From a virus (taxonomy: Duplodnaviria > Caudoviricetes): DNA of 57,423 nt. Shown piece after piece: positions 5,541-34,387 of this stretch. Position 1 is the stretch's first letter; the number at the start of each line of letters is the position of its first letter. The stretch lies in IMG/VR virus record IMGVR_UViG_3300042561_000852, positions 1 through 57,423 of that record, one strand, 5' to 3'. Position numbers and translations under genes: made by a program. Under the pieces are notes generated by a model. The model saw only the letters and a program-made list of their open reading frames with translations, was not told the DNA's origin and did no database searches.

Positions 5541-8500
5541 GTGACCAATCCGCTGAATCCGGGCTCGATCCAATGGGACACCGATGTAAAGCCGGCCGCG
5601 CCGGCGCCGAGCGCTATCCGCTGGGATGACGATGCTCCAGCCGACCAGAAGACTGGCGCGGGCCCTTCGTGGGACAAGCCGAGCACTTCGGCCGACGTCA
5701 CCCGGACTTGGGGCGAGGCAGCGACCGACACCCTGACCGGCATCGGACAAGCGGGCCTGAGCTCGATTTCCGGCGTGGTTCGCGGAATCAACGATCGAGC
5801 CCCTGGCGCTGCTGAAGCGGAGCGAGAAAGCGGCTTCGTGGCTGGCCTACTCATGGACGTTGGCGGCAAGGTCTACGAGGCCGGGCTTGGCGCCCAGAGA
5901 GCGCTTGGCCAGCTGGCTGGAAACCCGTATGTGATCAACGACGCAAACCGTGGGCTGCAGGAGATCAACGCGCGCCGCGCTGCTTCCGCGCCTGAAGACC
6001 TGAAGCGCGCCAAGGGCGCGGAAGACTTCGCCGGTTTCCTCGACGAGCGCGCAGCCCGCGTGCCGGAAGTGCAATCCGAGAAAGCAAGGCTGATCGCGAG
6101 CGAAATGGGGCAGTTGACGCAGGCCGAAGGCTTGGGTGATCAGGCCTTTGCCACCATTGACTACTTCGCCAGCCCGTTCCTACGCGGCGACCTGTCGACC
6201 GGCGGCGCGCGGGTTTCGAAGATCATGGAAAGCCTGATCCCGTCGCTTGCTGCTGGCGGCATCGCGGCGAAAGCGGTCGGCGCAGCTGGCGCTGGTGCTG
6301 GAATCCAGACTGCGGCCCAGCTCGGTACGATGTCGGTCATGGAAGGCGGCGGCGCGGCCGAAGGCGCCCGCGGCGAGGTGCTGAACACTCCGATCGAATC
6401 CCTGCAGTCAGCGCCCGAGTTCCAGGCGGCGCTGCGCATGACTGGCGGCGACCCGATCCGAGCTCGCGCGCTTCTGGCGGATCAGGCAGCGTCGATCAGC
6501 TTCGGTCTTGGCACTGCTGCTGCTGGCGCAACAATGGGCCTCGGACAAGTCTTCGGCGCCAACGTTGCAGAACAGGCGGTGCGCGAGGGTGTCGGCTCGC
6601 TTGCCACTGGCGCCGGCGTCCGTCAGGCGCTGCTGGGCGTGGCCGGCGCCACCGGAAAGGAGTTCGCCAGCGAGTTCGCCCAAGGCGCGAGCAACCAGGC
6701 CGCGCAGAACGTGGGCGTCACTGCCACCGGCGCGAGCGACAGCCTCGGCCGCGGCGTAGTGGCCGCCGGCATCATGGAAGGCATCGCCGGCGCTGGCAGC
6801 GGCGCAGCTGCGCAGGGTGCGGCCGAAGTCTCGAAGCGCCTCCGGCCGATTTTCGACGGCGAGGATCTTCTGGGCGGATCCAATGTTCAGACGGGCGACC
6901 CTGGCGCAGCGCAGCCCGGCGGCCTGAACCTGCCGGATGACCCTGCGGCGGCGCCGATCACCACGGCCGAAGTCGTCGCCCTGCGCGATCAGCAGCTGTC
7001 CGCCTTGCAGGCCAAGGCCAATGGCCGACCGGATCAGACCGTCGTCGACCCGGTCACCGGCAAGCCGGTCACGGTGCGCGGCGAGCCGCCGCAGCCGCTG
7101 AGCGAGGCCGAGCGGCAAATGCTCGAGTTCTTGCAGAAGTACGCCGACAGTCCGGACAAGCTGGCGCGCTCGCTGGGTCGTCGACTGGATGACTCTGCGG
7201 CCCCGCAGGCTGGCCCCGCTGCTGCGCCAGCACCAGCAGCGGCCCCGAGCGCTGCCGCCCAGCAGCCCCCGGCCGCGCCAGCTCCGCAACCCTCCCAGGC
7301 AGCGCCGCAGCCTGCAGCCGAGCCGGAGCAGCAGCCCGCCCAGGGCGTGCCGACGATGGTCACGCAGCGCATGAAGGCGCAGCTGCGCGAGCGCGGGTTC
7401 ACCGACCAGCAGATTCGCGCGATGACCCCGCAGGCCGCGTGGGACGCGATCAACAGCGGTGCCCAGGCGGCGCCGCAGGCGCAGGCCGCACAGCAGCAGC
7501 CGGCGCCCGCACCCTCTGCGCCTGTCGGCACCGTCGCCGCTGCCCTGCAGCCGCAGACCGCCGATGACCTGTTGCTCGACCGGGCCGCTGCCGAACTGCA
7601 GGGCATGGACGAAACCCCGCCGATCGCCGGGCCCGTCGCGATCGAACCCCAGACCGAGGAAGTCCGCAATGAAGAAGTCCAGCAAGTACCCAATGTCCAA
7701 CCCGCCCCCGCCGAAGTCGCAGGGCAAGGGCTGCAAGGGCAAGAAGAAGTAGCACCGGCGCCAGCCAGCGCCCCGCAGACAGGGGTTGTCGCGGCGGCGC
7801 TGGCGGCCCAATCCGAGCCGGCTGACCCCGATGCTGTCGAGGGTCAGCTTCCGGCCGAAAGCACGTTTGCTGCTGGGCGCGCTGAAGACGTGCCGACCGA
7901 GCGCGCGCCCGAGAGCTTCATCCCGCAAGTGCTGTCCGAAATCGGCTGGCTGGAGAAGGGCGGGCGGATGATCCGCGACCCGAGCACGGCCATTGGCGCG
8001 AGCTCGCAAGCCGAGATTGACCCTGAGCGGGGCGACGTCGTCGGTCGCACGAAGTGGATCGGCAAGCCATCGGCAGACGGAAGGGAGTCGCTTTTCTGGC
8101 GCATGCGCCCCGACCAGAGCTTGAGCGAGTCCGAAGCAACGGCGGCGGTTCAAAAGTGGCGCGAGGGCCGCAAGCTGGGCAAGCGCCAGCAGGCGTTCAT
8201 CGACTACATGCAGAAGGCTGCCCGCGACTATGCGGAGCAGTGGAACACCGAGCGCACGGAGACGCTTCGCGCGATCGTCGAGCTCGAAGCCGAGGGTATC
8301 GTCGAGGAGCGCGACGAGCTGCGCGCTGCTGTGCGCCCTAACCTGAGCCCCGAGGACGAGCGCGAAGCCCTGCAGCTGGATGACCTTCTGCGCCGCGCGG
8401 CCGACGCTGGCGCGACACGCGATCAGCTGTTGGATATTCTGACCAGCCAGCCCGAGCCGCAGCAGGCCCGGACACTCTGGCACTTCATCAAGACCCAGGA

Positions 8501-11500
8501 GCGCGACCGTGGCACTGACCAAGCAGGACCGAGCGAAGCTGCTGGACTTCAGCCTGAAGCAAGCGGCCGAGGGCAAGCCGAGTCTGATCGAGCAGGCGAA
8601 GCAGCGCCACGCGGCGCAGAAGCAGAGCCAGCCGCTGCCCCCGCCGCCGATCCCCGCGCCGAAGGGCTGACGCTCTCCGCGCCGGCCGCGCCGGCAGTCT
8701 CACGGCAGGCCGCGCCGCCCTCGCAGCAGGGCGGCTTGTTCGCGCCCCCGACCCGCGGCGAAGTCCTGGCCGGCGAGCGCAAGCGACGCGACGACGAGCG
8801 CGACGGCAAGAACGCCACCGGCCGCACCGACATGATGGCCGGCGATGGCGAGCTGTTCGCCGGGCCGCGGCCGGAGCAGGCCGATGTTGAGCAGGCGATT
8901 GCTGCCGAGCAAGTCGCCGAGCGCCCGAAGCCCTGGACGGTCAGTTCGTCGGAGTGGATGACTTCAGAGCGAGCCGAGATCGACGCAGCACGCGCTAGCG
9001 AAGACGCTGAAATCCCGAGGTTGCGTGCTCGTGTCGAATACAACCGCAATCAGCTACGCGGCCGGATGCCCAAAACTGACCGTGCTCGGCTTGAGCAGCT
9101 GGTGGATGATGACGAGTTCCGAATCTTGCAGCTTTCATCAAGGCCGCTCGATCCGGATGGGTTCGACATCACTCCGGCGCGTCATCGCCGCATCGTCGAG
9201 AGCGCCATGCGGCGCGGCGAATCCATCCCGGCAGAAGTGTTTGCGGAGTATCCGGATCTCGCAGCCGAAGCACAGTCGGCTCCTCCCTCGCAGGGGGAAA
9301 AGGTCGAGGCTGCGCCTGACTCCCCTGTTGTTCCGCCTGGTGTGCTGGACGCCCCTGCAAATCAGCTTGTTTCTCGTCTGAACAAACTGGTGGAGAAGCG
9401 CGAGAAGTGGAACCTCGCGCACATGCAGAAATACCGAGACGGAAGCGCAACCAGAGCGCAGACCACCACTCACAGCGCGCGAATCGCAGACCTCAACGAG
9501 CAAATCAAAGAGCTGAGAGACGCGATTGCGGCCGAGAAGTCGGTTTCCCCCTCGCAGGGGGAAAAGGTCAAGGCTGCGCGCCAGCCCCTCGAAAACGCGA
9601 CGGCACCAGACGCCGAACAAGAATCAGACCCGGTCATCACCGAGACCCAGGCCCGCCAAGAAATCGAGTGGATCGACATGGGCACTCAGGGCGGCGTCAA
9701 GTCGCTCCGCTTGCGCTTCCGCGGCATGGCTTACGGCGACCTGGAAAAGTCCGGCAAGGGCCGATGGATCATCGAGGGCAGCGGCGAGTCGTTCGTCGGT
9801 CTGGCCGAAGCCAAGCGCGCTGTTGCGGATACCGCCATCGAGCGGCTGATCGCGGATGGGTATGTCGAGCGCGCGCCTGCGGTCGAGGCTGCGCGCCAGC
9901 CCTCCGCAAACACCATTTTCACCGAAGACGCCGCCGAGAAGGCGCGCGCCCGCCTGCGCGCAAAGCTGGGCCGCCCAAACTCCGGCATCGACCCGGAAAT
10001 GCTGCAGGACGGCATCACCCTGGCCGGCTACCACATTGAGCGCGGCGCGCGGACGTTCGCCGCCTACGCTCGCGCAATGGTCGAGGACATGGGCGACGCT
10101 GTGCGCCCATTCCTCAAGAGCTGGTATCTAGGCGTAAAGTTTGACCCGCGCGCGGCTTCGATCGCGTCGGAAATGGACAGCGCCGCCGCCGTTGAGTCGG
10201 CCGACGCCAATCAGGAGTTCGGCGATGTACCAAGTTCCCCCGGAGACGTGGCAGGAGCTGGCCAGTCAGGGCCGGCTGCGGCATCCGACGTGGCAGAAGC
10301 TGATGCCGCTGCCGGTGGAGAAGCTGCTGCCGGCGCTGGACAGCCTAGTGGACGAGTGGGAGCAGGAGCACCCGGAGCGCGCGGTACGCGCGGCCCTGCT
10401 GGTGGCGCCGCTGCTGGTCGAGCGGGCCGCGATCAGCGCGTTCCTGCGCAGCAGCCCGATGGGCGAGAGCCTGCGGCCAGCGATGCCGGAGCTGCTGACG
10501 GTCGAGGAAGCCGTGGCGATGGCGGATCAGGAGTTCAGGCTGAGCGCGACGGAGCGCGAGGCGCTACGGAAGCTGCTGCGCGAGCACGAGGCGACCGCGA
10601 CAAGCTGACCCAGCAGCGCGCGGCCGAGTCGATCCCGGTCAGGCTGGGCGACATCGAGAACATTCGCGCGACCCTGCCGTATCTTCTGGAGGGCCAGCAG
10701 GACGACGTCGCCAAGGCCGAAGCGCGATTCGCCAAGCCTGACGGCTACGGCATGCTGTTCACCAACGGCACCGGCACCGGCAAGACCTTCACCGGGCTAG
10801 GCATCGTCAAACGCTTCCAGCGGCAGGGCAAAACCAACGTCCTGATCGTCGCGCCGTCCGACAAGATCATGTCGGATTGGGTCAAGAGCGGCATTCCGCT
10901 GGGCCTGGACATCACGCAGCTGGCCAGCACGTCCGACGCCGGCCGCGGCATCGTGGTCACTACCTACGCGAACCTGGGCCAGAACGATGCCCTCGCAAAG
11001 CGTGAGTGGGATCTGATCGTGGCCGACGAGGCCCATTACCTCATGCGCAGCGCCGATGGCGAGAGGACGGCCGCGCTCGATGCCCTGCGCGCGATCACCC
11101 TGCACCCGGATGGCTACATGCAGCGCACCAACATGCTGCATCGCGAGCTGGTGGACCGTGGCCGCGATTTGTCGGATCAGGCGAAGCGTGCCCGCATGTC
11201 GGACGATCAGCGCGATTGGTTCCGCGCGAAGGGCCTGGAGGAACAGGCGTCCGCCGCATTCCGCGAGCTGGACGCGCGCCGCAAGGAAGTGCAGGCCGAC
11301 GTGATGGCGAAGCAGGGCGCCTCGCGCACGCGCGCTGTGTTCCTGTCTGCGACCCCGTTCGCCTATGAGAAGACCGTGGATTGGGCGCAGGGCTATCTGT
11401 TCACCTACCCGGAGTCGCAGGGCGGCGGCTACAACTCGCCGGACTCCTTCGGCGCCTTCATGATGTCCAACTTCGGCTACCGCATGCGCTACGGGAAGCT

Positions 11501-14500
11501 GACGGCGCCCGAGGCTGGCGTCGACAGCGGGCTCATGCAGCGCATGTTCAACACGCGCCTCAAGCGTGAGGGCGTGCTGTCTGGCCGGCGCCTGGATGTG
11601 GCCGCCGACTACAGCCGCAACTTCGTGCTGGTCGAGTCGGCCATCGGCCGCCGCATTGATCAGGCCTTGGAGTGGCTGCGCGAGAACGACGGCACCCGCG
11701 AGATTTCCGACAAGCTGCGCGAGTCCTTCGACTACCTCGCGCGCCGGTATACCCTCGAAGCACTGAAGGCGCGCGAGTCGGTCGCGCTGATCCGCGAGCA
11801 CCTGGCGCTTGGCCGCAAGGTCGTGGTGTTCCACGACTACAAGAAGGGCGGCGCGCGCAACCCCTTCGACTTCGACGCCGGCAGCGTCGGCCCCACCGAA
11901 GCACAGACCATCGAGCAGTTCCGCGCCGAGTTCGGCGACCTGATTGAAGGCATGCGCGGGCTGATCTCGCCGATCGACCTGCTGCAGCGCGAGTTTCCCG
12001 ACCTGCTGCTGTTCAACGGCGACGTATCGCCGAAGAACCGCCGCGCCAATGTCGACACCTTCAACGACGACAGCACCGGGCCGCGCGTGATCTTGGTGCA
12101 GACCGATGCAGGCAAGGAGGGAATCAGCCTGCACGACACCACGGGCGAGCATCAGCGCGCGCTGATCAACCTGGGCATGCCGACCAAGCCGACAGACCTG
12201 ATCCAGCAGGAGGGGCGCATCTACCGCACCGGACAGGTCAGCAACGCGATTTTCAGCTATCTCAACACCGGCACGAGCTGGGAGCGCGCGACGTTCGCGC
12301 AGACCATCGCCGGTCGCGCCAGCGCCGCCGAGAACCTGGGCATGGGCGAGGAAGCGCGCGCCCTGAAGGACTCGCTGGTGCAGGCCTTCGAGGACAGCGC
12401 GCAGCTGCGCCCCGGCTACGAGGGCGAAGGCACCGGCGGCAAGGCGGCCGACGCTGCGGCCGCGCGCATGCTGACCGAGCACGACCGCGCTGTCTCGCTC
12501 TACTACGCCAACCAGAAGAAGACCCAGCGCACCAAGAGCGCCGAGGGCACCGACTACTTCGCGACGCCGGAGCCCGTTGGCCTGGCGATGGTGCGGATGG
12601 CTGACATCCGTCCGGGCGAGTCTGCGCTTGAGCCCAGCGCAGGCCACGGCGCCATCGCGCGTTGGTTCGGCGACACGGTGAAGAAGACCGCGGTGGAGCC
12701 AAGCCCGGAGCTTGCGAGCCGTCTTGCGCTGTCCTTCGACGGTCGCATTGTGGATGGGCGTTTCGAGTCGCTTGACCTGGTCAACAAGTTCGACGCCATC
12801 GTGATGAATCCGCCTTTCGGCACCGCGGGGCGCACTGCCGTGGATCACGTCGCCAAGGCTGCGAAGCATCTTCGCGAGGGTGGTCGCATCGTCGCGCTGA
12901 TTCCGACCGGGCCGGCTGCGGATAAGAAGTTCGATGCGTGGCTCTACGAGCAGGACGACAAGGGGCGCGTGGTGCACCCCGACCTGCACCTGGTCGCAAC
13001 CATCGAGCTGCCGGCCGTCACCTTCGAGCGCGCCGGAACCAATGTGCGCACTCGGATCGTGGTCGTCGACAAGCTGCCGGCAGATGTAATGCAGTTGGCA
13101 CAGCAGGATCGCGACCTTTCGAGCGCCGAGACGATCAAGGAGCTGTTCGATCGCGTCGAAAATCTGGAGATTCGCGCTCGCACCAGACCGGCTGAGCCTG
13201 AAGCCGAGACCGCGCCAGCACCAGCACCGCAGACAGAGCGCAAAGCGAAGGCAGAGTCGAGGGATGCGGCGCGCGATACGGCCAAGGCCGCAGGCGTCGC
13301 CCCCACAGGCGAGCCGATCGTCACGCACATCACGGGCAAGGGCAAAGAGCTGGTCGGAGTCGTGCGCACGGGCATCACCAAGGCGCAGGCACAGGCGATC
13401 GACGCCTACACCTTCGCCAAGAACGGCGGCTGGTTCATCCGCGTGGAGCATCTGAAGCCGGCGGGCAACTTCAGCCGACCCCGCAGCGCTGCATTGCCGG
13501 CGGCCGTCGTCGATCAGACGCAAACCCCCGAGTTCCGCCGCTGGTTCGGTAACAGCAAGGTGGTGGATGCCGAAGGGCGGCCGTTGGTGGTGTATCACGG
13601 GACGACCTTCGACTTTGAGGCCTTCAAGACCGGCAAGGCCAAGAAGGGAAACGAACTGCCTTTCGGTGCTCACTTTACCCCTAGCCCGGACATTGCCTCA
13701 CAATTCGCAGATAGCGAATCGGGGAATGTCCTGCCTGTTTACCTGTCGATCCTCGCCCCCCTTGATCTCACTCCGGAGGCTAATGAGTTCGCAGTTGTCG
13801 GCACCCCGGAGGGGATGCTTGCCGAAGAGGCCATAAGGGCCAACAAGCAAGAGCCGAAGCCGTACAGGCGATGGCAGTACCAGCCTTGGACGCAGGGAAC
13901 ACCGAAGGGTGACGATCTTGTTCTTCCGCTCAAGGCTGAGCTTGACGTTTTGAGGGGCGACAGGGGGCGCGCGATCATTCAAAAGGCTGGATACGACGGC
14001 GCGGTCTATTCCGCGACCTACTATCGCGGCCCCTTCGGATCTGGCGGCAGGACGCTTGACCGGAGCTACATCGCCTTCCGCCCCGAGCAGATCAAATCCT
14101 CCACCGGCAACCGCGGCACCTTCGACCCAGCCGACCCGCGCATCGCCTACAGCCAGCCAATGCCCGGCGACCGCATCCCCATGGGCCCGCTGCGTTCCGA
14201 CGCAGCCATGCGTTTCGCCGTCGCGGCAGCGCTGGACGGCTGGGCCGGGCAGAAGCCAATCGTGCGCGTCGTGCGCACCGCTGCCGAGCTGCCGGCCGAC
14301 GCGAAGATGGGCGAGGGCTGGCAGACCGCCGAGGGCTACTTCGACGGTGCTGATGGCGTCTGGCTGGTCACCGAGAACCTGGCCGACCCGCAGCGAGCGC
14401 TCGAAGTCCTGCGGCACGAGGCCGTGGGTCACTTCGGCGTCGAGCGCATCGCGGGCGCGTCCTGGCCGAGCATCCTTGCTGGCGTCGAGTCCTTCCGCGG

Positions 14501-17500
14501 GCAGCGCCGCAACAGCATGTCGAAGCCGATGGCGGCAGCGCTGGCCGAGGCAGAAGCGCGCTACGAGGCCGCAGCCAGCGATGACCCGCTGCTGTTCGCG
14601 AAGGAGCTGCTTGCGGTCATGGCCGAGACGGGCACGCGGGCGACGTGGATGGATCGCATGCTCTCGCAGCTGCGCGCCTTCCTGCGCAAGACTGGTCTGA
14701 TCGGCGATGCCTTCAGTGAGGCCGAGCTGCGCAATGTCCTGTCTGGCGCGTTCCGGCTGGTCGAGCGCGGCGGCAGCCTGACCGCTGGCGCTCCGGTGGC
14801 GGCTGGCGGCATGCAGTCAATCCGGCCCGACGACGTCGCCGCCTACATCCTGCGGATGATGGGCCAGAGCGACGCCGACCTGTTCCGCTACCCGAAGTCG
14901 GACAGCACCAGCTTTGCGAAGGTGGTGAAGGACGTCAGCAAGAACGCGATCGCCGCAGTGAAGCTGGGCGAGGTCGAAGCCAACTTCACCGAGAACCTGG
15001 ACGACATGCTGCCGGCGGTGAAGTGGGGGCTTCGCCTGCCGGACGGCTCGCAGGCCTTCGTCTACATCGAGCAGCCGAGCCCATACACGCCCGACAGCGG
15101 CCTGCGCATGTTCATCGACGCCAGCGCCGGCAACGCAGGCGCGAGCCTGGGCAGCGCCGCCTATGCCGCGCTGTTCCAGTGGGCACTGAACACCGGCCAC
15201 ACCTTCATCGGCGACCCCAACGGGCTGAGCACCGAGGCCCTGCTTCGGCGCACCGAGCACATGCTTTCGGCCGCCCTGAAGCACGGCACCACGCGAATGA
15301 TGGCGCCGCACGCGCGCCAGGTGGACCCCATGGACAAGAAGTGGGGCCCGTCGCAGGATTGGGCGCACCCGCTGGAGTGGACGGACGGCGACGACGTGGC
15401 GAACGTCACGGCGCTGATCCGCACCAGTGTGGAGAATCACCGCGCACTGCTGCAGGGGACCGAGGCCGATGGCGCCGTATATCGTCTTTCCGATGGACAG
15501 TTCATTGGCGCTGGCGGACAGCCTCTCACCGACGAGGGACTGCGACGCGCTGCTGCAACTGCTGGAGCGCGATTCCGAGCGAGTGGCCGCTTTGCCGGTC
15601 CAGAGTCCCGAGCGGCAGCTGTTGGCGGCTCTACGGTGGCGCGCACGCTGGTTCTCGGCTCGCTGCTCGACGGATCGACTGGATCCACGGGACAACGACG
15701 TGAGCTACTGGCTGATCTTGCAGAGCGGCTGTCCGCTCAACGCCTGACCTATGACCGCGCGCGGGGGCTGTTCTACAGCCGGCCGGGCGCATCCCGCCTT
15801 CAGCAAAACATGAGCACCGATCGGTCCGAAGCAATCAGCCAGATCCTCGACGCAATCAAGCGGGATGGCAGGGTCGAAGGCTGGGGGCTCCGGGTTATCG
15901 ACGTGGACCCCGATGTTGGGAGCGATGGCTTCCTGCCGCCAAGCTTCGTGTGGGATAACGGGGATCAGACTGAGGAAACCCTAAATGGAACTTCTGCAGT
16001 CGGCATCCGAGAGCTTTCAGAGTCCGGCATCGATAAGGCGCTGCGCCTCCTTGGTGTCGGCGGAAGCGGTGAAAATGGTTTCTACTTCGGTGATCGCGTC
16101 CTGTTGGTCAACGGCGAACCGAAGGGCTCGGGGGAGGATGCTGGCGAGGTGATCCTTGCGGAGGCCGAGCTGATCGGTCAGTGGAAAAAGTCGGGCAGCG
16201 GCCCCAACGAGATCTTGCCCAATCCGCCTGGCCTTTTCAGCCAGCCCCGCCTCGGCCCCCAGCTTCCGCAGAATCTCGGCCAAGGCCCTGCAGCGTCCGC
16301 CGCCCGCGGCGCGCTGCTCGCTGTCCGCCAGCGCGTCCAGCAGCTCACCAGCCGCGAGACGATCGACCGCCTGCTCTACGAGTTTCAGGACAAGTTCGTC
16401 GACCTGAAGCGCATTCAGGCGCACATCCGAGAGTCCGGCGGCACCGTGTCGGATCTCAATGACGCCTACCTCGGCGAAGAGCTGTATCACTCCCGAGTCA
16501 TGGCGCGGCACGAGCGATTCATGGACTCGGAGCTGAAGCCGCTGCTGGCCGACCTGAACGCGGGCGGCTTTACCATCGAGCAGTTCGAGCAGTTCCTGCA
16601 CGCCCGGCATGCGCCCGAGGCGAACGCGGCGCTCATGAAGCGCAACCCTGACGCCAAGACGGTGCAGGACGAGCGCGATCGCACGGAGCAGGCTGTTCGC
16701 ACACTGCGCGTGCAGCTTCAGCAGGCGCAGAGCGCCGGCACCGCCACGCGCGCGATTGAGCAGGCCTTGGAGCTGGCCGAGCTGGAGCGCGACCGCTGGA
16801 AGCGCACGCAGCCGTTCAAGGGCACTAACACCGAGCGGGCGATGCTGTCGGGCATGTCGGACGCCGACGCGGCCGCGATCATGGCCGCACTGTCGCCGGC
16901 TGATCGCGCCAAGATGGACGCCCTGGCCGCGCGCGTGGATGCGATCAACGCGAAGACGCTCGACCAGCTGGAGCGCTACGGGCTCATGTCGCGCGCCGAC
17001 CTTGACGCCTGGCGCCAGACCTATCAGCACTACGTTCCGCTGCATCGCGACGAGGCCAACCCGGACAGCGTCAGCCATCCGACCGGCTCGGGCTTCAGCG
17101 TCCGCGGCGATGCGGCGAAGTCGCGCACCGGCTCGGCGAAGGCGAAGGTGACCAACATCCTCGCCCACATCGCCATGCAGCGCGAGGCGGCGATCACGCG
17201 CGGCGAGAAGAACGCGGTGGCGAAGCGCCTGTATGTCCTGGCCGGCCAGAACCCGGACCCGGACCTGTGGACGCTGGACAAGGCGCCGACGATCACCCGG
17301 CTGGATCCGGCAACGGGCACCGTGCGATCGATGCCGGACCCGACTTACCGGCAGCAGCCGAATGTGGTCATGGTGCGGATTGCCGGCGAGGACCGCGCCA
17401 TCGTCTTCAGCGAGCGCAACCCGCGCGCGCTGCGGCTGGCCGAGTCTCTGAAGGGCCTCGATGTCGACGACCTGCACGTCGTCTTGGGCTGGTTCTCGAA

Positions 17501-19088
17501 GGCGACGCGCTGGTTCGCCAGTGTCAACACCCAATACAACCCGGTCTTCGGCATCATCAACCTGCTGCGCGACGTGCAGGGCTCTGCGCTGCAGCTGTCG
17601 ACCACACCGCTGAAGGGCCGAGAGCTCCAGGTGGTGCGCCGCATCCCGGCGATGCTGCGCTCGATTTACCGCGAGCGCCGCGGCAAGGGCACGGCCAGCC
17701 CCGATGATGCGCGCCTGCAGCGCCTGTGGGACGACATGCGCATGACCGGCGGCGTCACTGGCTACCGCGACCTGTTCCGTGACCCGATGGAGCGCGCGAA
17801 TGCGATCGAGGCCGAGCTGCGCAAGTCCGAGCGCGGCATGGCCAGCCGCGCCGCGCACGCCGTGGTCGACTGGCTGAGCGACTACAACGAGGCGATCGAG
17901 AACGCGACGCGCCTTGCGGTCTACGAGCAGGGCCTGGCCATCGGCATGACCAAGGAGCGCGCAGCCAGCGTCGCGAAGAACATCACGGTCAACTTCAACC
18001 GGAAGGGCCGTCAGGCGCGCGAGCTGGGCGCCCTGTTCGCCTTCTTCAACGCGGCAGTGCAGGGCACCACGCGCATGGTCGAGACGCTGGCCGGGCCCCG
18101 CGGCCGCGCCATCATGGCCGGCGGCGTTGCGCTGGGCTTCGTGAACAGCCTGATCGGCCTGGCCGTGATGGGCGGCGACGAGTGGGAGAAGATTCCCGAC
18201 CACGTCAAGGAGCGCGCGGTCATCATCCCGATCAGCGGCAGCGACTACATCAGCATCCCGATGCCGCTGGGCTACCACGTCTTCCCGAACATTGGCCGCA
18301 TCGCTGCGGAGTGGATGACCGGCGGCGCGGACAAGTCCATTGCCGGCGGCGCTGCTGAACTGCTGCGGATCGGTGTCGATGCCTTCAACCCGCTCGGCGG
18401 CACGTCGACTCCGCTGCAGATGATCATGCCGACGGCACTGGACCCGATCGCGGCCCTGGCCGAGAACAAGGACTGGACCGGCCGCCCGATCTACCGCGAG
18501 GACTTCAGCAACACTGACCCGACGCCGGGATTCACGCGGGCAAAGGACAGCGCCAGCCTGCCGGCAAAGGTCATGGCGTGGGGCGCCAACGCGCTGAGCG
18601 GCGGCGACGACTATCAGCCCGGCGCCTTCAGCCCGACGCCCGATCAGATCGACTACATCATGGGCCAGCTGACCGGCGGCCTCGGGCGCGAGATCCTGAA
18701 AGCGCAGACCACGCTGGCCGCGCCCTTCAGCGACGACGAGCTGCCGGCGTACAAGATCCCGCTGGTGTCCCGCCTGTACGGCAACACCCGCGGCGAGGCC
18801 GGCGAGAGCCAGCGCTTCTACGAGTCGCTGCGCGAGCTGAACATCATCGAGCGCCGGATCAAGGGCATGGCGCAGGCTGGCGAGGACGTGGATGCCTACA
18901 TGGCGGCCGAGCCCCTGGCGGGTCTGGTCGGCATGGGTACGCGATCGCAGTCGGTGGTGCAGCGCCTGCGCTCCGCCCAGCGTCGAGCCAGTGAGGCCGG
19001 CGACCGCGATCAGGCCGAGGCCATCCGCCTGCAGATCGCCGAAGTGATGGCTGACCTCAACCGCGAAGTGCGCGCAGCCAAGCAATGA
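5541..19088 (+). CDS. Giant DarB-like polyvalent virion protein (4515 aa): SF2/strawberry-notch-type helicase, N6-adenine MTase, ART-PolyVal-like, HExxxH, GNAT-like and LPD38-like domains
   Basis: GTGTGKT 10767-10787, DEAH 11025-11036, SAT; EPSAGHG and NPPF 12807-12818; FRRWFGNSKVVD...VYHGT...QIKSSTGNRGTFD; HEAVGH 14415-14432; C-terminal AKNITVNFNRKG...FFNAAVQG. Confidence 0.9.
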   Translation: MTNPLNPGSIQWDTDVKPAAPAPSAIRWDDDAPADQKTGAGPSWDKPSTSADVTRTWGEAATDTLTGIGQAGLSSISGVVRGINDRAPGAAEAERESGFVAGLLMDVGGKVYEAGLGAQRALGQLAGNPYVINDANRGLQEINARRAASAPEDLKRAKGAEDFAGFLDERAARVPEVQSEKARLIASEMGQLTQAEGLGDQAFATIDYFASPFLRGDLSTGGARVSKIMESLIPSLAAGGIAAKAVGAAGAGAGIQTAAQLGTMSVMEGGGAAEGARGEVLNTPIESLQSAPEFQAALRMTGGDPIRARALLADQAASISFGLGTAAAGATMGLGQVFGANVAEQAVREGVGSLATGAGVRQALLGVAGATGKEFASEFAQGASNQAAQNVGVTATGASDSLGRGVVAAGIMEGIAGAGSGAAAQGAAEVSKRLRPIFDGEDLLGGSNVQTGDPGAAQPGGLNLPDDPAAAPITTAEVVALRDQQLSALQAKANGRPDQTVVDPVTGKPVTVRGEPPQPLSEAERQMLEFLQKYADSPDKLARSLGRRLDDSAAPQAGPAAAPAPAAAPSAAAQQPPAAPAPQPSQAAPQPAAEPEQQPAQGVPTMVTQRMKAQLRERGFTDQQIRAMTPQAAWDAINSGAQAAPQAQAAQQQPAPAPSAPVGTVAAALQPQTADDLLLDRAAAELQGMDETPPIAGPVAIEPQTEEVRNEEVQQVPNVQPAPAEVAGQGLQGQEEVAPAPASAPQTGVVAAALAAQSEPADPDAVEGQLPAESTFAAGRAEDVPTERAPESFIPQVLSEIGWLEKGGRMIRDPSTAIGASSQAEIDPERGDVVGRTKWIGKPSADGRESLFWRMRPDQSLSESEATAAVQKWREGRKLGKRQQAFIDYMQKAARDYAEQWNTERTETLRAIVELEAEGIVEERDELRAAVRPNLSPEDEREALQLDDLLRRAADAGATRDQLLDILTSQPEPQQARTLWHFIKTQERDRGTDQAGPSEAAGLQPEASGRGQAESDRAGEAAPRGAEAEPAAAPAADPRAEGLTLSAPAAPAVSRQAAPPSQQGGLFAPPTRGEVLAGERKRRDDERDGKNATGRTDMMAGDGELFAGPRPEQADVEQAIAAEQVAERPKPWTVSSSEWMTSERAEIDAARASEDAEIPRLRARVEYNRNQLRGRMPKTDRARLEQLVDDDEFRILQLSSRPLDPDGFDITPARHRRIVESAMRRGESIPAEVFAEYPDLAAEAQSAPPSQGEKVEAAPDSPVVPPGVLDAPANQLVSRLNKLVEKREKWNLAHMQKYRDGSATRAQTTTHSARIADLNEQIKELRDAIAAEKSVSPSQGEKVKAARQPLENATAPDAEQESDPVITETQARQEIEWIDMGTQGGVKSLRLRFRGMAYGDLEKSGKGRWIIEGSGESFVGLAEAKRAVADTAIERLIADGYVERAPAVEAARQPSANTIFTEDAAEKARARLRAKLGRPNSGIDPEMLQDGITLAGYHIERGARTFAAYARAMVEDMGDAVRPFLKSWYLGVKFDPRAASIASEMDSAAAVESADANQEFGDVPSSPGDVAGAGQSGPAAASDVAEADAAAGGEAAAGAGQPSGRVGAGAPGARGTRGPAGGAAAGRAGRDQRVPAQQPDGREPAASDAGAADGRGSRGDGGSGVQAERDGARGATEAAARARGDRDKLTQQRAAESIPVRLGDIENIRATLPYLLEGQQDDVAKAEARFAKPDGYGMLFTNGTGTGKTFTGLGIVKRFQRQGKTNVLIVAPSDKIMSDWVKSGIPLGLDITQLASTSDAGRGIVVTTYANLGQNDALAKREWDLIVADEAHYLMRSADGERTAALDALRAITLHPDGYMQRTNMLHRELVDRGRDLSDQAKRARMSDDQRDWFRAKGLEEQASAAFRELDARRKEVQADVMAKQGASRTRAVFLSATPFAYEKTVDWAQGYLFTYPESQGGGYNSPDSFGAFMMSNFGYRMRYGKLTAPEAGVDSGLMQRMFNTRLKREGVLSGRRLDVAADYSRNFVLVESAIGRRIDQALEWLRENDGTREISDKLRESFDYLARRYTLEALKARESVALIREHLALGRKVVVFHDYKKGGARNPFDFDAGSVGPTEAQTIEQFRAEFGDLIEGMRGLISPIDLLQREFPDLLLFNGDVSPKNRRANVDTFNDDSTGPRVILVQTDAGKEGISLHDTTGEHQRALINLGMPTKPTDLIQQEGRIYRTGQVSNAIFSYLNTGTSWERATFAQTIAGRASAAENLGMGEEARALKDSLVQAFEDSAQLRPGYEGEGTGGKAADAAAARMLTEHDRAVSLYYANQKKTQRTKSAEGTDYFATPEPVGLAMVRMADIRPGESALEPSAGHGAIARWFGDTVKKTAVEPSPELASRLALSFDGRIVDGRFESLDLVNKFDAIVMNPPFGTAGRTAVDHVAKAAKHLREGGRIVALIPTGPAADKKFDAWLYEQDDKGRVVHPDLHLVATIELPAVTFERAGTNVRTRIVVVDKLPADVMQLAQQDRDLSSAETIKELFDRVENLEIRARTRPAEPEAETAPAPAPQTERKAKAESRDAARDTAKAAGVAPTGEPIVTHITGKGKELVGVVRTGITKAQAQAIDAYTFAKNGGWFIRVEHLKPAGNFSRPRSAALPAAVVDQTQTPEFRRWFGNSKVVDAEGRPLVVYHGTTFDFEAFKTGKAKKGNELPFGAHFTPSPDIASQFADSESGNVLPVYLSILAPLDLTPEANEFAVVGTPEGMLAEEAIRANKQEPKPYRRWQYQPWTQGTPKGDDLVLPLKAELDVLRGDRGRAIIQKAGYDGAVYSATYYRGPFGSGGRTLDRSYIAFRPEQIKSSTGNRGTFDPADPRIAYSQPMPGDRIPMGPLRSDAAMRFAVAAALDGWAGQKPIVRVVRTAAELPADAKMGEGWQTAEGYFDGADGVWLVTENLADPQRALEVLRHEAVGHFGVERIAGASWPSILAGVESFRGQRRNSMSKPMAAALAEAEARYEAAASDDPLLFAKELLAVMAETGTRATWMDRMLSQLRAFLRKTGLIGDAFSEAELRNVLSGAFRLVERGGSLTAGAPVAAGGMQSIRPDDVAAYILRMMGQSDADLFRYPKSDSTSFAKVVKDVSKNAIAAVKLGEVEANFTENLDDMLPAVKWGLRLPDGSQAFVYIEQPSPYTPDSGLRMFIDASAGNAGASLGSAAYAALFQWALNTGHTFIGDPNGLSTEALLRRTEHMLSAALKHGTTRMMAPHARQVDPMDKKWGPSQDWAHPLEWTDGDDVANVTALIRTSVENHRALLQGTEADGAVYRLSDGQFIGAGGQPLTDEGLRRAAATAGARFRASGRFAGPESRAAAVGGSTVARTLVLGSLLDGSTGSTGQRRELLADLAERLSAQRLTYDRARGLFYSRPGASRLQQNMSTDRSEAISQILDAIKRDGRVEGWGLRVIDVDPDVGSDGFLPPSFVWDNGDQTEETLNGTSAVGIRELSESGIDKALRLLGVGGSGENGFYFGDRVLLVNGEPKGSGEDAGEVILAEAELIGQWKKSGSGPNEILPNPPGLFSQPRLGPQLPQNLGQGPAASAARGALLAVRQRVQQLTSRETIDRLLYEFQDKFVDLKRIQAHIRESGGTVSDLNDAYLGEELYHSRVMARHERFMDSELKPLLADLNAGGFTIEQFEQFLHARHAPEANAALMKRNPDAKTVQDERDRTEQAVRTLRVQLQQAQSAGTATRAIEQALELAELERDRWKRTQPFKGTNTERAMLSGMSDADAAAIMAALSPADRAKMDALAARVDAINAKTLDQLERYGLMSRADLDAWRQTYQHYVPLHRDEANPDSVSHPTGSGFSVRGDAAKSRTGSAKAKVTNILAHIAMQREAAITRGEKNAVAKRLYVLAGQNPDPDLWTLDKAPTITRLDPATGTVRSMPDPTYRQQPNVVMVRIAGEDRAIVFSERNPRALRLAESLKGLDVDDLHVVLGWFSKATRWFASVNTQYNPVFGIINLLRDVQGSALQLSTTPLKGRELQVVRRIPAMLRSIYRERRGKGTASPDDARLQRLWDDMRMTGGVTGYRDLFRDPMERANAIEAELRKSERGMASRAAHAVVDWLSDYNEAIENATRLAVYEQGLAIGMTKERAASVAKNITVNFNRKGRQARELGALFAFFNAAVQGTTRMVETLAGPRGRAIMAGGVALGFVNSLIGLAVMGGDEWEKIPDHVKERAVIIPISGSDYISIPMPLGYHVFPNIGRIAAEWMTGGADKSIAGGAAELLRIGVDAFNPLGGTSTPLQMIMPTALDPIAALAENKDWTGRPIYREDFSNTDPTPGFTRAKDSASLPAKVMAWGANALSGGDDYQPGAFSPTPDQIDYIMGQLTGGLGREILKAQTTLAAPFSDDELPAYKIPLVSRLYGNTRGEAGESQRFYESLRELNIIERRIKGMAQAGEDVDAYMAAEPLAGLVGMGTRSQSVVQRLRSAQRRASEAGDRDQAEAIRLQIAEVMADLNREVRAAKQ
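7669..7752 (+). CDS. Nested +1-frame basic peptide MKKSSKYPMSNPPPPKSQGKGCKGKKK (27 aa)
   Basis: GAGGA SD 7656-7660, 8 nt before ATG; host frame here is acidic linker. Confidence 0.45.
   Translation: MKKSSKYPMSNPPPPKSQGKGCKGKKK
8509..8670 (+). CDS. Nested +1-frame small protein MALTKQDRAKLLDFSLKQAAEGKPSLIEQAKQRH... (53 aa)
   Basis: AGGAG SD 8497-8501, GTG start; host frame switches to A/T-ending codons and low-complexity sequence over this span. Confidence 0.6.
   Translation: MALTKQDRAKLLDFSLKQAAEGKPSLIEQAKQRHAAQKQSQPLPPPPIPAPKG
9285..9903 (+). repeat. In-frame direct repeats (PSQGEKVxAA/VxAARQP) at 9285-9315, 9549-9588 and 9881-9903
   Basis: 31-bp copies with 1 mismatch 264 bp apart; third partial copy 315 bp further. 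Confidence 0.85.
10225..10608 (+). CDS. Nested +1-frame helical protein MYQVPPETWQELASQGRLRHPTWQKL... (127 aa)
   Basis: AGGAG SD 10213-10217; CTG/GAG-rich phage-typical codons; host frame reads as GCT/GGA/CGA-rich Gly-Ala-Arg junk over the same span. Confidence 0.8.
   Translation: MYQVPPETWQELASQGRLRHPTWQKLMPLPVEKLLPALDSLVDEWEQEHPERAVRAALLVAPLLVERAAISAFLRSSPMGESLRPAMPELLTVEEAVAMADQEFRLSATEREALRKLLREHEATATS
15469..15747 (+). CDS. Nested +1-frame protein MAPYIVFPMDSSLALADSL... (92 aa)
   Basis: Host frame shows A/T-ending codons (GCT GCT GCA ACT GCT GGA) while the +1 frame is open and Leu-rich; weak SD. Confidence 0.5.
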   Translation: MAPYIVFPMDSSLALADSLSPTRDCDALLQLLERDSERVAALPVQSPERQLLAALRWRARWFSARCSTDRLDPRDNDVSYWLILQSGCPLNA

Positions 19089-19139
19089 GTGCGCGGCCGG
19101 CGGCGATCATCTTGCCGCCGGCCCAGCACCAGGAGCGGA

Positions 19140-19168
19140 TTACGTCGCGGGCGAGCATGGGGTATGCT
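19140..19168 (+). promoter_or_regulatory. Sigma70-like promoter for the downstream ncRNA
   Basis: TTACGT-N17-TATGCT; predicted start coincides with the 5' end of the RNA closing stem. Confidence 0.55.
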
Positions 19169-19172
19169 CCGG

Positions 19173-19303
19173 ATCGGTGGATGCGTAGGCTGATGCGCTA
19201 CGACGATAAACGCGACAGGGCCAAACCGAGGGCGAAACGTCTCTCCCGCCTGCTGAAATGCAGGCAGCTCCTAGCAAGCCGGAGATCAGCGCCGGCCACC
19301 GAT
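19173..19303 (+). ncRNA. Kissing-loop structured RNA A
   Basis: Closing stem ATCGGTG/CACCGAT; hairpins GCGTA-GGCTGA-TGCGC and GCCGG-AGATCAGCG-CCGGC; GCTGAT/ATCAGC complementary; own promoter and terminator. Confidence 0.8.
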
Positions 19304-19305
19304 AT

Positions 19306-19334
19306 GGCCCTGCCAGCAATGGTGGGGCCTTTTT
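19306..19334 (+). terminator. Rho-independent terminator
   Basis: GGCCCTGCCA-GCAA-TGGTGGGGCC-TTTTT. Confidence 0.85.
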
Positions 19335-20482
19335 CATTCCGGCAGCAGGTAATCGGCCCAGGCCTGCATGAGCTGGCGCCGCTTCTCCAGCAGGTTGCCG
19401 CGGCGATATGCGGCCTCGACCTTGTCGCGGATCGTGTGCGCCAGCGCCATTTCGGCGACTTCGCGCTCGGTCGCGGTCTGCTCGGCCGTCCAGTCGCGGA
19501 AGGTGCTGCGAAACCCGTGCACGGTGTATGGCAGGCCCAGGCCCTTGGGCGGCGGGCGCTGCAGCAGGTAGAGCATCGCGTTCTCGGACAGGGCGAACGG
19601 CGGGCGGCTCCGGGGCAAGATCTCGAGAACTGCGACAGCCTGGCGCGACAGCGGGACGACGTGCTCGCGCGCCGCCTTCATCCTTGCGGCCGGGATCGTC
19701 CACGTCGCCGCCTGCAGGTCAATCTCGGGCCAGTCGGCGCCGGTGACTTCGCCCGTGCGCGCGGCCGTGAGGATCGTCCACGCCAGTGCTCGCCGACTGA
19801 TGCTCTGTCCCGACAGCAGGGCCGCCATGAAGGCCTGGGCGTCTGCGTAGGGCATGGCTGCGTGGTTCTCGACCTTGCGCACTTTCTCTGGTGGCGGCAG
19901 TAGGTGCTGTAGGTGGCCTTTCCAGCGCGCAGGGTTCTCGCCAGCGACCGCGCCGGCGACGCGCTCGGCATCCCAGATGCGTTCGATGCGCGCCCGGATC
20001 CGCGTTGCCGTCTCGGTCTTCCCGGTCCAGATCTTGCGAAGGCATCGCAGGATCAGCGGTGTGTCGATGGCGGATACGGGCAGCTCGAAGTCGGGCCCAT
20101 GGTCGCGCAGCGACTGCAGCCATTGGTCGGCCTGCGCCTCGTTCTTCCAACCGACGGCCTGCGTTGCAATGAACTCTGCGACGGCTTCGCCCCAGCTCCG
20201 CGCAGGCGAGCCCCTGGCGGCCTTGCGCGCCTCGATCGGGTCAATGCCATCGGCTCGAAGCTTGCGCTGCTCAGCGGCGCGCACGCGAGCCTCGGCGAGG
20301 CTGAAGTCCTGCGTGGAGCCGAGCCCCATGTCTCGAAGTCGGCCCAGGTGGCGAAAGCGGAAGATCCAGCTTCGCGCGCCGGTAGGCTTCACCAGCAGGT
20401 ACAGGCCGCCGCCGTCAGAGTGCAGGCCGGGCCCGAGATTCTGGACGGACTTGGCCGTCAGCTTGTGTAGCGCCCGCCCCAT
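19334..20482 (-). CDS. int: Tyrosine integrase, P4/IntA-like with arm-binding domain
   Basis: DGGGLYLLV...WIFRF N-domain; TAARTGE, RMK, VHGFRSTF, LAH, AY catalytic motifs. Confidence 0.95.
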   Translation of the reverse strand: MGRALHKLTAKSVQNLGPGLHSDGGGLYLLVKPTGARSWIFRFRHLGRLRDMGLGSTQDFSLAEARVRAAEQRKLRADGIDPIEARKAARGSPARSWGEAVAEFIATQAVGWKNEAQADQWLQSLRDHGPDFELPVSAIDTPLILRCLRKIWTGKTETATRIRARIERIWDAERVAGAVAGENPARWKGHLQHLLPPPEKVRKVENHAAMPYADAQAFMAALLSGQSISRRALAWTILTAARTGEVTGADWPEIDLQAATWTIPAARMKAAREHVVPLSRQAVAVLEILPRSRPPFALSENAMLYLLQRPPPKGLGLPYTVHGFRSTFRDWTAEQTATEREVAEMALAHTIRDKVEAAYRRGNLLEKRRQLMQAWADYLLPE

Positions 20483-33021: not shown

Positions 33022-33893
33022 TGTCAGCCGACTGGATCAAGATGCGCGCGAACCTGTGGGACGACCCCCGGGTCGCCGCGCTCTGCGACGCCTGCGACTG
33101 CGGCGAGGCCGTAGCCATCGGCGCGCTGTACTGGCTGTGGGCCGCAGCGGACCAGCACTCCGAGGATGGGATGCTGCCGGGCATGACGTCGCGGCAGATC
33201 GACCGCAAGACTGGCGTTCCTGGCTTTGCTCAGGCCGTCGCGGCGATCGGTTGGCTGGAGCTGTCCTCAGATGGGGCGCGAATCGTCCGCTTCGAGGAAC
33301 ACAACGGCACCAGCGCAAAGCGCAGATCGTCCGAGTCTCGTCGCAAAATGTCCGCACGCGATGCGGACAAGTTGCGCGCAGCGTCCGCATTCGATGCGGA
33401 CAGCCAGCGGACTGGCAGCGGAAGTTATGCGCACCTAGAGAAAGAGAAAGAACAAGAGCAAGAACCCCCCTATATCCCCCCTTGCGGCGAGAGCGATCCC
33501 GCCGCTGCCGCGGCGGCCTCACCGGGTGCGCCTGCGGCTGAACAGCCGAAGCCGAGAGCCAAGCGCGAGAGCAAGCCGCTTCAGGCCCTGCGCACCTTCC
33601 GCGCCGACGGCGGCCTGCTGGTCAAGGCCGGCGAGGATCCACTGCTCGACTACATCGACCGCATCGGCCTGCCCGAGGACTTCCTGCGGGTCGCTGTGCA
33701 CGCCTTCGACCAGCGCTTTCTGCACACGGACCAGAAGCAGCGCGACTGGCCGGCGCACTTCCGCAACGCGGTGCAATCCAACTGGTTTCGCCTGTGGTGG
33801 GACGACGGCGGGACGTGGCGGCTGACCACGCAGGGCAAGCAGGCCGAGCGCGAGCTGCAGGCCCTGGCTGAGCAGCAGCGGGGTGCGGCGTGA
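33021..33893 (+). CDS. Replication initiator protein
   Basis: N-terminal DWIKMR..L.DDPRV; C-terminal DW...F.NAV..NW; upstream of DnaB. Confidence 0.8.
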   Translation: MSADWIKMRANLWDDPRVAALCDACDCGEAVAIGALYWLWAAADQHSEDGMLPGMTSRQIDRKTGVPGFAQAVAAIGWLELSSDGARIVRFEEHNGTSAKRRSSESRRKMSARDADKLRAASAFDADSQRTGSGSYAHLEKEKEQEQEPPYIPPCGESDPAAAAAASPGAPAAEQPKPRAKRESKPLQALRTFRADGGLLVKAGEDPLLDYIDRIGLPEDFLRVAVHAFDQRFLHTDQKQRDWPAHFRNAVQSNWFRLWWDDGGTWRLTTQGKQAERELQALAEQQRGAA

Positions 33894-34387
33894 GCGCTTG
33901 GGAACCCAACACCGGCGCCACCGACGAGTGGTACACGCCGCGCGGCGTCTTCGACGCTCTGGCCGTTCGCTTCGACATGGACGTGGCCGCGCCGCGCGAA
34001 GGTCCGCGTCATGTTCCGACGTCACGCTGGCTGTGGCGCGACTCGCTTGAATCCGCATGGTCCGGCTTCGTGTGGATGAATCCGCCCTTCGGCGCTCGCA
34101 ACGGGCTGGAGCCGTGGCTACACAGGTTCTTTAATCACGGCAACGGCGTGGCGCTCACGCCTGATCGCACATCGGCGCCATGGTGGCAGCAGGCCGCTCG
34201 ACAGGCCGACGCGATCTTGCTGACGGATGGGAAAGTGAAGTTCGAACGGCCCGACGGAACAGTCGGCGCATCGCCGGGCGCGGGCGTCACCCTGTGGGCT
34301 GCTGGTCCGCTTGGCGTGATGGCGCTGCTCAATGCGCAGCGCGCAGGGCTTGGCTGCGCCTGGGTTCCCTTCAGGGGTGCCGCATGA
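33890..34387 (+). CDS. Phage DNA N6-adenine methyltransferase
   Basis: DEWYTP...FDMDVA...VWMNPPF. Confidence 0.85.
   Translation: MSAWEPNTGATDEWYTPRGVFDALAVRFDMDVAAPREGPRHVPTSRWLWRDSLESAWSGFVWMNPPFGARNGLEPWLHRFFNHGNGVALTPDRTSAPWWQQAARQADAILLTDGKVKFERPDGTVGASPGAGVTLWAAGPLGVMALLNAQRAGLGCAWVPFRGAA

Follow-up and report, generated by a model that had tools for sequence, protein, structure and literature searches.

Does the giant polyvalent gene of virus record IMGVR_UViG_3300042561_000852 encode additional proteins in a second reading frame, and if so, where? The window, by which we mean the whole stretch of DNA analyzed here, is a complete 57,423-bp virus record with a GC content of about 66%. 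A preliminary description of this DNA had proposed that four open reading frames (ORFs) within the giant gene form a set of hidden, overprinted genes. All four are indeed +1 to the giant frame, and three of them (ORF1, ORF2, and ORF3) are preceded by a GAGGA or AGGAG Shine-Dalgarno (SD) core at a spacing of 7 to 8 nucleotides, as had been stated. Based on the analysis below, the giant virion-protein gene is very probably dual coding at defined places, with ORF3 as an independent gene, ORF4 as a probable one, ORF2 as a possible one, and ORF1 probably a chance occurrence. To speak of a set of four was too strong, since ORF3 is judged real, ORF4 probable, ORF2 undecided, and ORF1 probably chance. 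The host gene, the four ORFs, and the SD-like cores are as follows.

5541 to 19088, plus strand: giant polyvalent (DarB-like) virion protein gene, 4,515 amino acids, the host frame of all nested ORFs
7669 to 7752, plus strand: candidate ORF1, ATG start, 27 amino acids, lysine-rich, judged probably chance
7656 to 7660, plus strand: GAGGA core, 8-nucleotide spacer to the ORF1 start
8509 to 8670, plus strand: candidate nested ORF2, GTG start, 53 amino acids, undecided
8497 to 8501, plus strand: AGGAG core, 7-nucleotide spacer to the ORF2 GTG
10225 to 10608, plus strand: nested gene ORF3 (family 1, N-terminus MYQVP), +1 frame, ATG start, 127 amino acids, stop codon TGA, judged real
10213 to 10217, plus strand: AGGAG Shine-Dalgarno-like core, 7 nucleotides before the ORF3 ATG
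15469 to 15747, plus strand: nested ORF4, +1 frame, ATG start, 92 amino acids, with homologues and a dip in host-frame G+C content at third codon positions (GC3), judged probably real

A tblastn search with the ORF3 peptide matched Pseudomonas phage Skulduggery (40% identity, E-value of 6e-10) and also Serratia phage Parlo, Klebsiella phage ZX1, and two Vibrio phages. The Skulduggery homologue occupies record positions 33577 to 33966 (9016 to 9405 of L001). In all five cultured phages, the match is offset by +1 from the giant coding sequence in the annotation and is itself unannotated, so the prediction that standard gene callers would miss such genes proved correct for ORF3. Further loci were obtained from scans of viral, metagenome, and genome contigs and include phages of 38 to 40% GC. 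The homologue was an ATG-initiated ORF of 124 to 138 amino acids within an open giant frame in 21/21 loci, all of which carried the N-terminus MYQVP save one with MQQVP. An ORF3-like +1 ORF was likewise found in 3/3 further phage records and in 22/22 family-positive loci, and an SD-like core was located at positions −16 to −4 in 17 of 18 homologous loci. Homologous giant genes thus keep the +1 frame open together with the SD motif as well as the initiation codon. The search of plasmids with ORF3 returned no match.

We then asked in which frame the DNA of ORF3 is constrained, using site variability and pairwise amino acid differences without a formal dN/dS model. Across 10 sequences, the nested second position was the least variable, followed by the first and the third; nested positions 1, 2, and 3 contained 20, 37, and 9 invariant sites, respectively. 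The nested second position is the third position of the host frame, and this was the most conserved nucleotide position over ORF3. At intermediate divergence, the amino acid difference on the same DNA was lower in the nested than in the host frame (0.30 versus 0.57 for L017-L018, 0.39 versus 0.64 for L002-L006, and 0.32 versus 0.60 for another such pair), while the adjacent helicase, used as a control, gave an ordinary host-frame pattern. The closest pairs (L007-L009) count against this reading, as nested and host differences were equal (0.17 and 0.16). In close pairs, third positions changed less in nested ORF3 (0.11) than in the helicase (0.30), which is expected because the DNA is under double constraint. 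From these patterns, we conclude that purifying selection acts on the nested frame and that ORF3 is a genuine nested gene.

The predicted product supports this conclusion. AlphaFold2, run with an 18-row alignment, modeled ORF3 as an eight-helix fold with a predicted local distance difference test score (pLDDT) of 93.2 and a predicted template modeling score of 0.85. A profile search of 1.84 billion representatives recovered 527 ORF3-family clusters (50% identity level) with E-values of ≤1e-3, of which 408 had E-values of ≤1e-10; none of the 527 is named. Most clusters are 115 to 140 amino acids long and match from residue 1. Among the 150 profile matches listed, there was no giant protein with an ORF3 domain, and the longest match was 408 amino acids. 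ORF3 proteins are mildly acidic (isoelectric points of 4.1 to 5.4), and no conserved catalytic-type residues were evident in the family alignment; we tentatively favor a binding or adaptor role. Function searches gave little that would help this reading. Pfam returned only a weak match to DUF3482 (E-value of 0.004, below the cutoff), PHROGs returned nothing, and sequence and fold searches of the PDB provided no lead for ORF3 or ORF4. Foldseek found no match at an E-value of ≤1e-3 in the PDB or BFVD, an absence that is no proof of a new fold, and the best Z score in a wide VIA search was 4.5.

All four ORFs might nevertheless be chance products of a gene that is 67% GC and has long off-frames, in which Glu/Gly-rich stretches yield SD-like words. 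Several counts go in that direction and weigh against a set of genes. Compared with 500 synonymous shuffles, +1 ORFs of at least 25 amino acids numbered 37 observed against 33.9 expected and those of at least 90 amino acids 8 against 7.4, so that shuffling gives as many and as long +1 ORFs. Longer +1 ORFs also exist outside the four, such as the one at 14056 to 14700 (214 amino acids), SD-like cores accompany 25 of the 160 +1-frame start codons in the giant gene (16%), and antisense ORFs reach 722 to 1,022 amino acids. Since ORF count and length are at the level of the shuffles, the informative signal is composition rather than openness. Here the preliminary description was accurate in stating that the host frame loses its preference for G/C-ending codons: GC3 fell from 0.81 to 0.45, 0.47, 0.47, and 0.52 over ORF1 to ORF4, respectively, with GC1 at 0.79 to 0.93 over the same spans (gene-wide GC1, GC2, and GC3 of 0.71, 0.51, and 0.81). 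In host composition, the four spans fell under the 5th percentile of windows of the same length. When codon usage was scored by log-odds, with well-behaved parts of the giant gene for training, each of the four spans scored better in the +1 than in the host frame, most strongly at 8511 to 8675 and 10221 to 10610. The edges of the GC3 dip coincide with the ORF borders for ORF2, ORF3, and ORF4, while the dip at ORF1 is diffuse. Read by eye, the host frame resembles a low-complexity linker over ORF1 to ORF3, in line with the claim of three such cases.

For ORF3, chance is already refuted by the selection on its nested frame, the confidently predicted fold, and its conservation as an open frame in the phages of 38 to 40% GC, where the probability of an open +1 frame, calculated from the stop density of each locus, is 0.0003 to 0.0007 per locus; in the window, the same calculation gives 0.07. 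The sharp GC3 dips at ORF borders and the identical C-terminus of the ORF4 homologues described below also speak against chance. It fits ORF1, with its 27 amino acids, diffuse dip, and lack of homologues, but as an explanation of all four ORFs it is very improbable.

Both frames are open on one mRNA, and phages use ribosomal frameshifting to make alternative products. Programmed frameshifting from the giant frame would yield truncated trans-frame isoforms instead of independent proteins. The ATG and SD sequence of ORF3 are conserved, however, and most of the 527 clusters match from the first residue. In five loci (L003, L006, L010, L011, and L012), a stop codon lies immediately 5′ of the nested ATG, which leaves no room for a shift site and speaks for initiation at the ATG rather than frameshifting. 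We judged frameshifting, without a scan for slippery heptamers, to be the least credible of the explanations considered.

Alternatively, the nested frames could be relics of compensated frameshifts, in which a former in-frame reading of the giant gene was displaced by two indels and encodes no separate protein. Such a history would explain the native codon usage of the +1 frame and the poor usage of the host frame, and also why all cases are +1, because no other shift would keep the host frame open. It is less easily reconciled with ORF3, whose two-frame layout is kept in every locus across very distant phages, together with its start, its SD sequence, and, in the five loci above, the stop before the ATG; nor did the profile matches listed contain the in-frame domain within a giant protein. 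Relics are hence an improbable general explanation, with ORF2, which has no comparable homologue, as the place where they could apply. Assembly errors are not the cause of the frame changes, since other contigs from lake-water runs match 8140 to 8555, 8461 to 8750, and 10056 to 11340 with 0 differences. Among 40 of 200 strain differences listed for lake-run contigs, none fell in the ORF spans; within about 14325 to 15789, the contigs of runs X5 and X4 differ from the window at 71 and 8 sites, respectively.

ORF3 thus emerges as an independent gene, and its position relative to the modules of the giant protein is constant. The neighboring modules are listed here.

9906 to 10223, plus strand: "LKSWY" module, host frame, amino acids 1456 to 1561, directly 5′ of ORF3, without a Pfam name
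10698 to 12908, plus strand: SNF2-type helicase followed by an adenine-methylase-like domain, host frame, the module preceded by ORF3

The host frame stays open for at least 476 nucleotides past the nested stop codon in 21/21 loci, and this stop falls at the start of the conserved helicase N-terminus. The helicase behind the nested ORF was read in sequence in L019 and L103 and aligned in 15 loci. ORF3 always lies directly before the SNF2 helicase, whatever lies upstream, and it therefore does travel with a module; the broader suggestion that a nested gene accompanies each module was upheld for ORF3 in this way. The MAG (metagenome-assembled genome) contig L019 shows a break in the giant frame at about 10900 to 10932, just past the DEAH-like motif of the helicase, followed by junk sequence; a frameshift error or decay of this copy is the probable reason.

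Upstream of ORF3, the LKSWY module is usually present, with other modules in its place in some loci. LKSWY is 65 to 74% identical in amino acid sequence between the window (67% GC) and phages of 38 to 40% GC, compared with about 44% for the neighboring helicase. P0015 and P0039 are stand-alone proteins in which an ORF3-like domain is followed in frame by an LKSWY domain, a fusion that offers a Rosetta-stone hint that the two domains work together. These proteins are 230 to 330 amino acids long, as is P0011, in which an ORF3-like domain is likewise followed in frame by a module of the type found before the nested gene in giant genes; their domain order is reversed relative to that in giant genes. 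The in-frame order of P0015 was found in 0/17 loci of viral contigs by tblastn with both parts and in 0/22 by profiles; all of these 17 and 22 loci had the usual order of LKSWY followed by the +1 nested gene.

These observations suggest how the locus may work. Ribosomes would start at ORF3's own SD sequence and ATG within the late mRNA of the giant gene, so that translation would occur by internal initiation. The product would be a 127-amino-acid, mildly acidic, all-helical protein whose stop codon lies where the conserved host helicase begins. Read in the host frame, this DNA would give a linker that is rich in G/A/R/D/E and apparently lacks structure, and the A/T-ending host codons of this linker would be the shadow of the second codon positions of the nested gene. 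The ORF3 product might work with the helicase-methylase or the LKSWY module as a partner, regulator, or loading factor whose synthesis keeps pace with that of the giant protein. ORF4 would be a second nested gene, laid over the end of LPD37, and ORF2 may be a third. The nested frames have native codon usage, the ORF3 family is wider than any giant-gene architecture, and the host reading is of low complexity, which together suggest that the nested frame is older and the linker reading derived. Giant genes may have fused across small genes through an off-frame that rarely holds stop codons in genes with G/C-rich third positions.

Is ORF3 the only family to use this position? The preliminary description had viewed the linkers as hidden gene slots, and a scan for the LKSWY module, which returned 80 loci, bears on this idea. 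Twenty-two loci contained the ORF3 family, always in the +1 frame and always spanned by the host frame, and in 30 of the 58 loci without it, this post-LKSWY linker contained a second +1 family, unrelated to the first. For 28 of these 30, the following features were determined: ORFs of 81 to 117 amino acids, 25 ATG and 3 GTG start codons, and an SD-like core in 25/28. Three examples, from among loci L028 to L107, are given below.

L041, 6245 to 6550, +1 frame: second-family ORF
L053, 6245 to 6553, +1 frame: second-family ORF
L072, 6305 to 6625, +1 frame: second-family ORF

The hhalign probability of a relationship between the second and the ORF3 family is 0.5%. In the second family, the nested amino acid difference was lower than the host difference in 12/12, 22/22, and 68/68 pairs in the three lowest divergence bins. 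L039, the sole second-family locus read past the first 420 residues, continues into methylase-like sequence. Five of 16 second-family members gave weak matches to the Pfam family TnpV (PF14198; best E-value of 3.5e-4), and the first member gave none. Both TnpV, which is found in conjugative transposons, and the second family are small helical mobile-element proteins, but the likeness is weak and below acceptable membership, and the ORF3 family is unrelated to the second family. In at least one locus that lacks the linker, L063, LKSWY runs straight into the next domain without a long +1 frame, and this supports the view of the linker as both the shadow of a nested gene and a reusable slot. Further +1 ORFs of 115 to 136 codons occupy the same slot in L034/L094, L046/L047, and L039; they are protein-like, belong to neither family, and may represent additional nested families.

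The slot idea gained support from the second, unrelated family in the same linker and lost it at ORF4, which lies over a conserved domain. In its general form, inter-domain linkers would be, instead of spacers, dual-coding slots with exchangeable small genes, comprising at least two unrelated families and perhaps ORF4 and ORF2, whose products would be module-specific partners. Each slot product would be made in step with the giant protein in the producer cell, for instance as a chaperone, loading factor, or brake acting on the adjacent helicase-methylase. Growth of the giant genes would have come about when small genes were read through in an open off-frame, with fusion of the genes on either side. 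We consider this generalization rather doubtful.

ORF4 poses a different problem, as it overlaps not a linker but the following conserved domain.

14856 to 15668, plus strand: LPD37 domain, host frame, Pfam E-value of 3e-48, with its C-terminal part under ORF4

Eight ORF4 homologues, P0157 to P0164, were found, each 95 amino acids long and 57 to 65% identical to ORF4; three were scored and had E-values between 6e-26 and 3e-30. In all eight, PYVIFPM lies close to the N-terminus and LQSGCPLNA forms the C-terminus, and they share a 13-residue invariant block. Start region and length are kept in 8/8 homologues, as are the final 8 residues together with the stop codon. ORF4 is probably a real nested gene on this evidence, but many observations weigh against it. 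Upstream of its ATG, there is only GAGG at 3 nucleotides or GGGGA at 9 nucleotides and no good SD sequence. The best AlphaFold2 model had a pLDDT of 80.9, and the other four of five models had values of 52 to 67. PHROGs and Pfam returned nothing for ORF4, and Foldseek and VIA nothing clear (best Z score of 4.0). DNA encoding the homologues was not found in phages, viral contigs, plasmids, or 3 MAGs, nor in 401 genomes from the order, or 401 from the family, to which G002 belongs. In addition, the host frame aligns over the whole ORF4 span with the giant protein of Erwinia phage PEp14, which has no ORF4 match, and the best-conserved ORF4 block coincides with the best-conserved host block. The host-frame piece from 14838 to 15890 had no relatives in viral contigs and, in phages, only in Erwinia phages.

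The host homology to PEp14 raises the possibility that conservation of the host frame has passively produced the +1 similarity of ORF4, and of close ORF3 homologues. In a host-only control, host identities of 86 to 90% were accompanied by +1 identities of 62 to 66%, and homologues are subject to ascertainment bias, being collected only if the frame is open. The ORF4 peptide alignments, however, force second-position changes in at least 27% of host codons, which limits host identity to at most about 0.71 to 0.73. From the helicase control, passive +1 identity is then expected to be about 0.49, compared with the 0.57 to 0.65 observed. This excess, which is indirect evidence, favors selection on ORF4, as do the start region, length, and C-terminus retained in 8/8 homologues and the composition dip at the ORF borders. 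For ORF3, the comparison of nested with host amino acid differences excludes a passive origin; for ORF4, we regard it as the less likely reading, though one with some weight.

We dropped the argument that ORF4 homologues are free-standing genes because they come from contigs of 150 to 208 kb after applying a control with known nested peptides. Three of 10 such peptides were present in the protein collection, one of them from a 99.8-kb contig, and this too weighs against ORF4: gene calls on long contigs can include nested ORFs, and long contigs are thus no proof that the homologues stand free. Two weak ORF4 matches, L022 and L023, were rejected as off-frame junk inside another gene.

ORF2 differs from ORF4 in that composition supplies the signal. 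All but 3 of its 53 sense codons, read by eye, end in G or C, as is typical of the genome, while the host frame over ORF2 uses rare A/T-ending codons. The GC3 dip is sharp (8515 to 8649), the +1 log-odds score is +0.77, and the switch in composition coincides with the GTG preceded by AGGAG. The exactness of this coincidence is a point against ORF2 being a frameshift relic. On the other side, no homologue of the ORF2 peptide was detected in any collection searched. We lean slightly away from ORF2 as a real nested gene, and a lineage-specific gene and a compensated-frameshift relic appear about equally likely. The ORF1 dip lies within a longer A/P/Q/E-rich stretch, and local searches, the only ones made for ORF1, gave no matches, which also weighs against it; it is unlikely that ORF1 is a genuine nested gene. 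Around ORF2 and ORF1, the giant gene has no relatives in the searched collections, and its host-frame piece from 7758 to 8510 had none in viral contigs or phages. Phages 80 to 90% identical do exist, as the short contigs behind P0003 to P0005 show.

It had also been suggested that the nested products could be inhibitors or chaperones that keep toxic modules quiet, as a nested effector/immunity system. This part of the proposal found no support. ART-PolyVal, the one clearly toxin-like module, is without a nested +1 coding signal. ORF3 flanks the helicase and ORF4 overlaps LPD37, so neither is beside the toxin-like module.

13566 to 14123, plus strand: ART-PolyVal domain, host frame, without nested coding signal, absent from a variant strain

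In contigs of lake runs X4 and X5, 16 nucleotides take the place of window positions 13477 to 14164 (688 nucleotides), an in-frame loss of 224 codons that takes out the ART-PolyVal domain. This in-frame deletion indicates that strains gain or lose the toxin-like module as a cassette.

Embedded same-strand overlapping genes are known in phages from nested genes of the phiX174 type. Another embedded same-strand phage gene, Rz1 inside Rz, is mentioned for phage JC1 (PMC9144972). Like Rz1, the nested genes described here are complete genes that lie within another gene, share its strand, and are read in the +1 frame from a start of their own, and they are conserved and constrain host synonymous sites. 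Unlike in Rz1/Rz, the host is a polyvalent virion protein of 3,000 to 4,500 amino acids, the nested gene fills a disordered linker, the nested frame has native codon usage and is under stronger selection, and one slot is occupied by unrelated families in different phages. The host gene resembles the DarB-like methylase-helicase dyad and polyvalent proteins (Iyer et al. 2017, PMC5512222) in its multidomain build and its location among virion genes, but here the helicase precedes the methylase, and nested genes are not part of the description in the available portion of that source. As in overprinting (PMC8227390), two proteins come from one DNA stretch, one folded and one apparently disordered; in the classic case the new frame is the short nested one, whereas here the linker reading seems to be derived, judging from codon usage and from how widely the family of about 125 amino acids occurs in stand-alone form.

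In a literature search that did not cover supplementary files, nested genes in DarB-like or polyvalent genes were not described. The kind of element, an embedded phage gene, is therefore known, and the novelty lies in where it occurs, in the direction in which constraint runs, in how large the family is, and in the use of one slot by families that are unrelated. A widespread family of 527 clusters is hidden in a gene that pipelines treat as a single coding sequence, and routine phage annotation thereby misses real genes. At least some of the "low-complexity linkers" of giant proteins are the off-frame shadow of a gene for a folded protein, and the locus provides a clean natural case of a nested frame being the more constrained one. 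A slot with unrelated families beside different downstream modules offers a testable handle on the regulation or assembly of DarB-like anti-restriction modules, and it offers access, too, to the way in which smaller genes are built into polyvalent giants.

The assignment of the host gene rests on its domain content. Pfam identified the following domains in the giant protein.

Amino acids 1720 to 2260: ResIII/SNF2/Helicase_C
Amino acids 2403 to 2456: MTase
Amino acids 2676 to 2861: ART-PolyVal
Amino acids 3106 to 3376: LPD37
Amino acids 4213 to 4409: LPD38

Because it combines the SNF2/ResIII helicase, the adenine-methylase-like domain, ART-PolyVal, LPD37, and LPD38, we assign it, by these Pfam matches, to the polyvalent, DarB-like virion proteins described in PMC5512222. 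Many unrelated effector-type domains are present in one polypeptide, and the gene lies among virion genes. Its neighbors include the genes for a large terminase, a portal/adaptor protein, an internal virion protein, and an acetyltransferase, and a DnaB-like helicase is likewise encoded in the record. A megablast search with positions 7000 to 16000 found only a 41-nucleotide match in phages and none in plasmids. The ATG of the downstream gene at 19085 to 19903 overlaps the TGA of the giant gene (ATGA, 19085 to 19088), which suggests translational coupling. Opposite the giant gene, on the minus strand, lie antisense ORFs at 6408 to 8576, 10797 to 13673, and 16017 to 19085 (722, 958, and 1,022 amino acids, respectively), which we regarded as shadow ORFs of the kind usual in G/C-rich genes.

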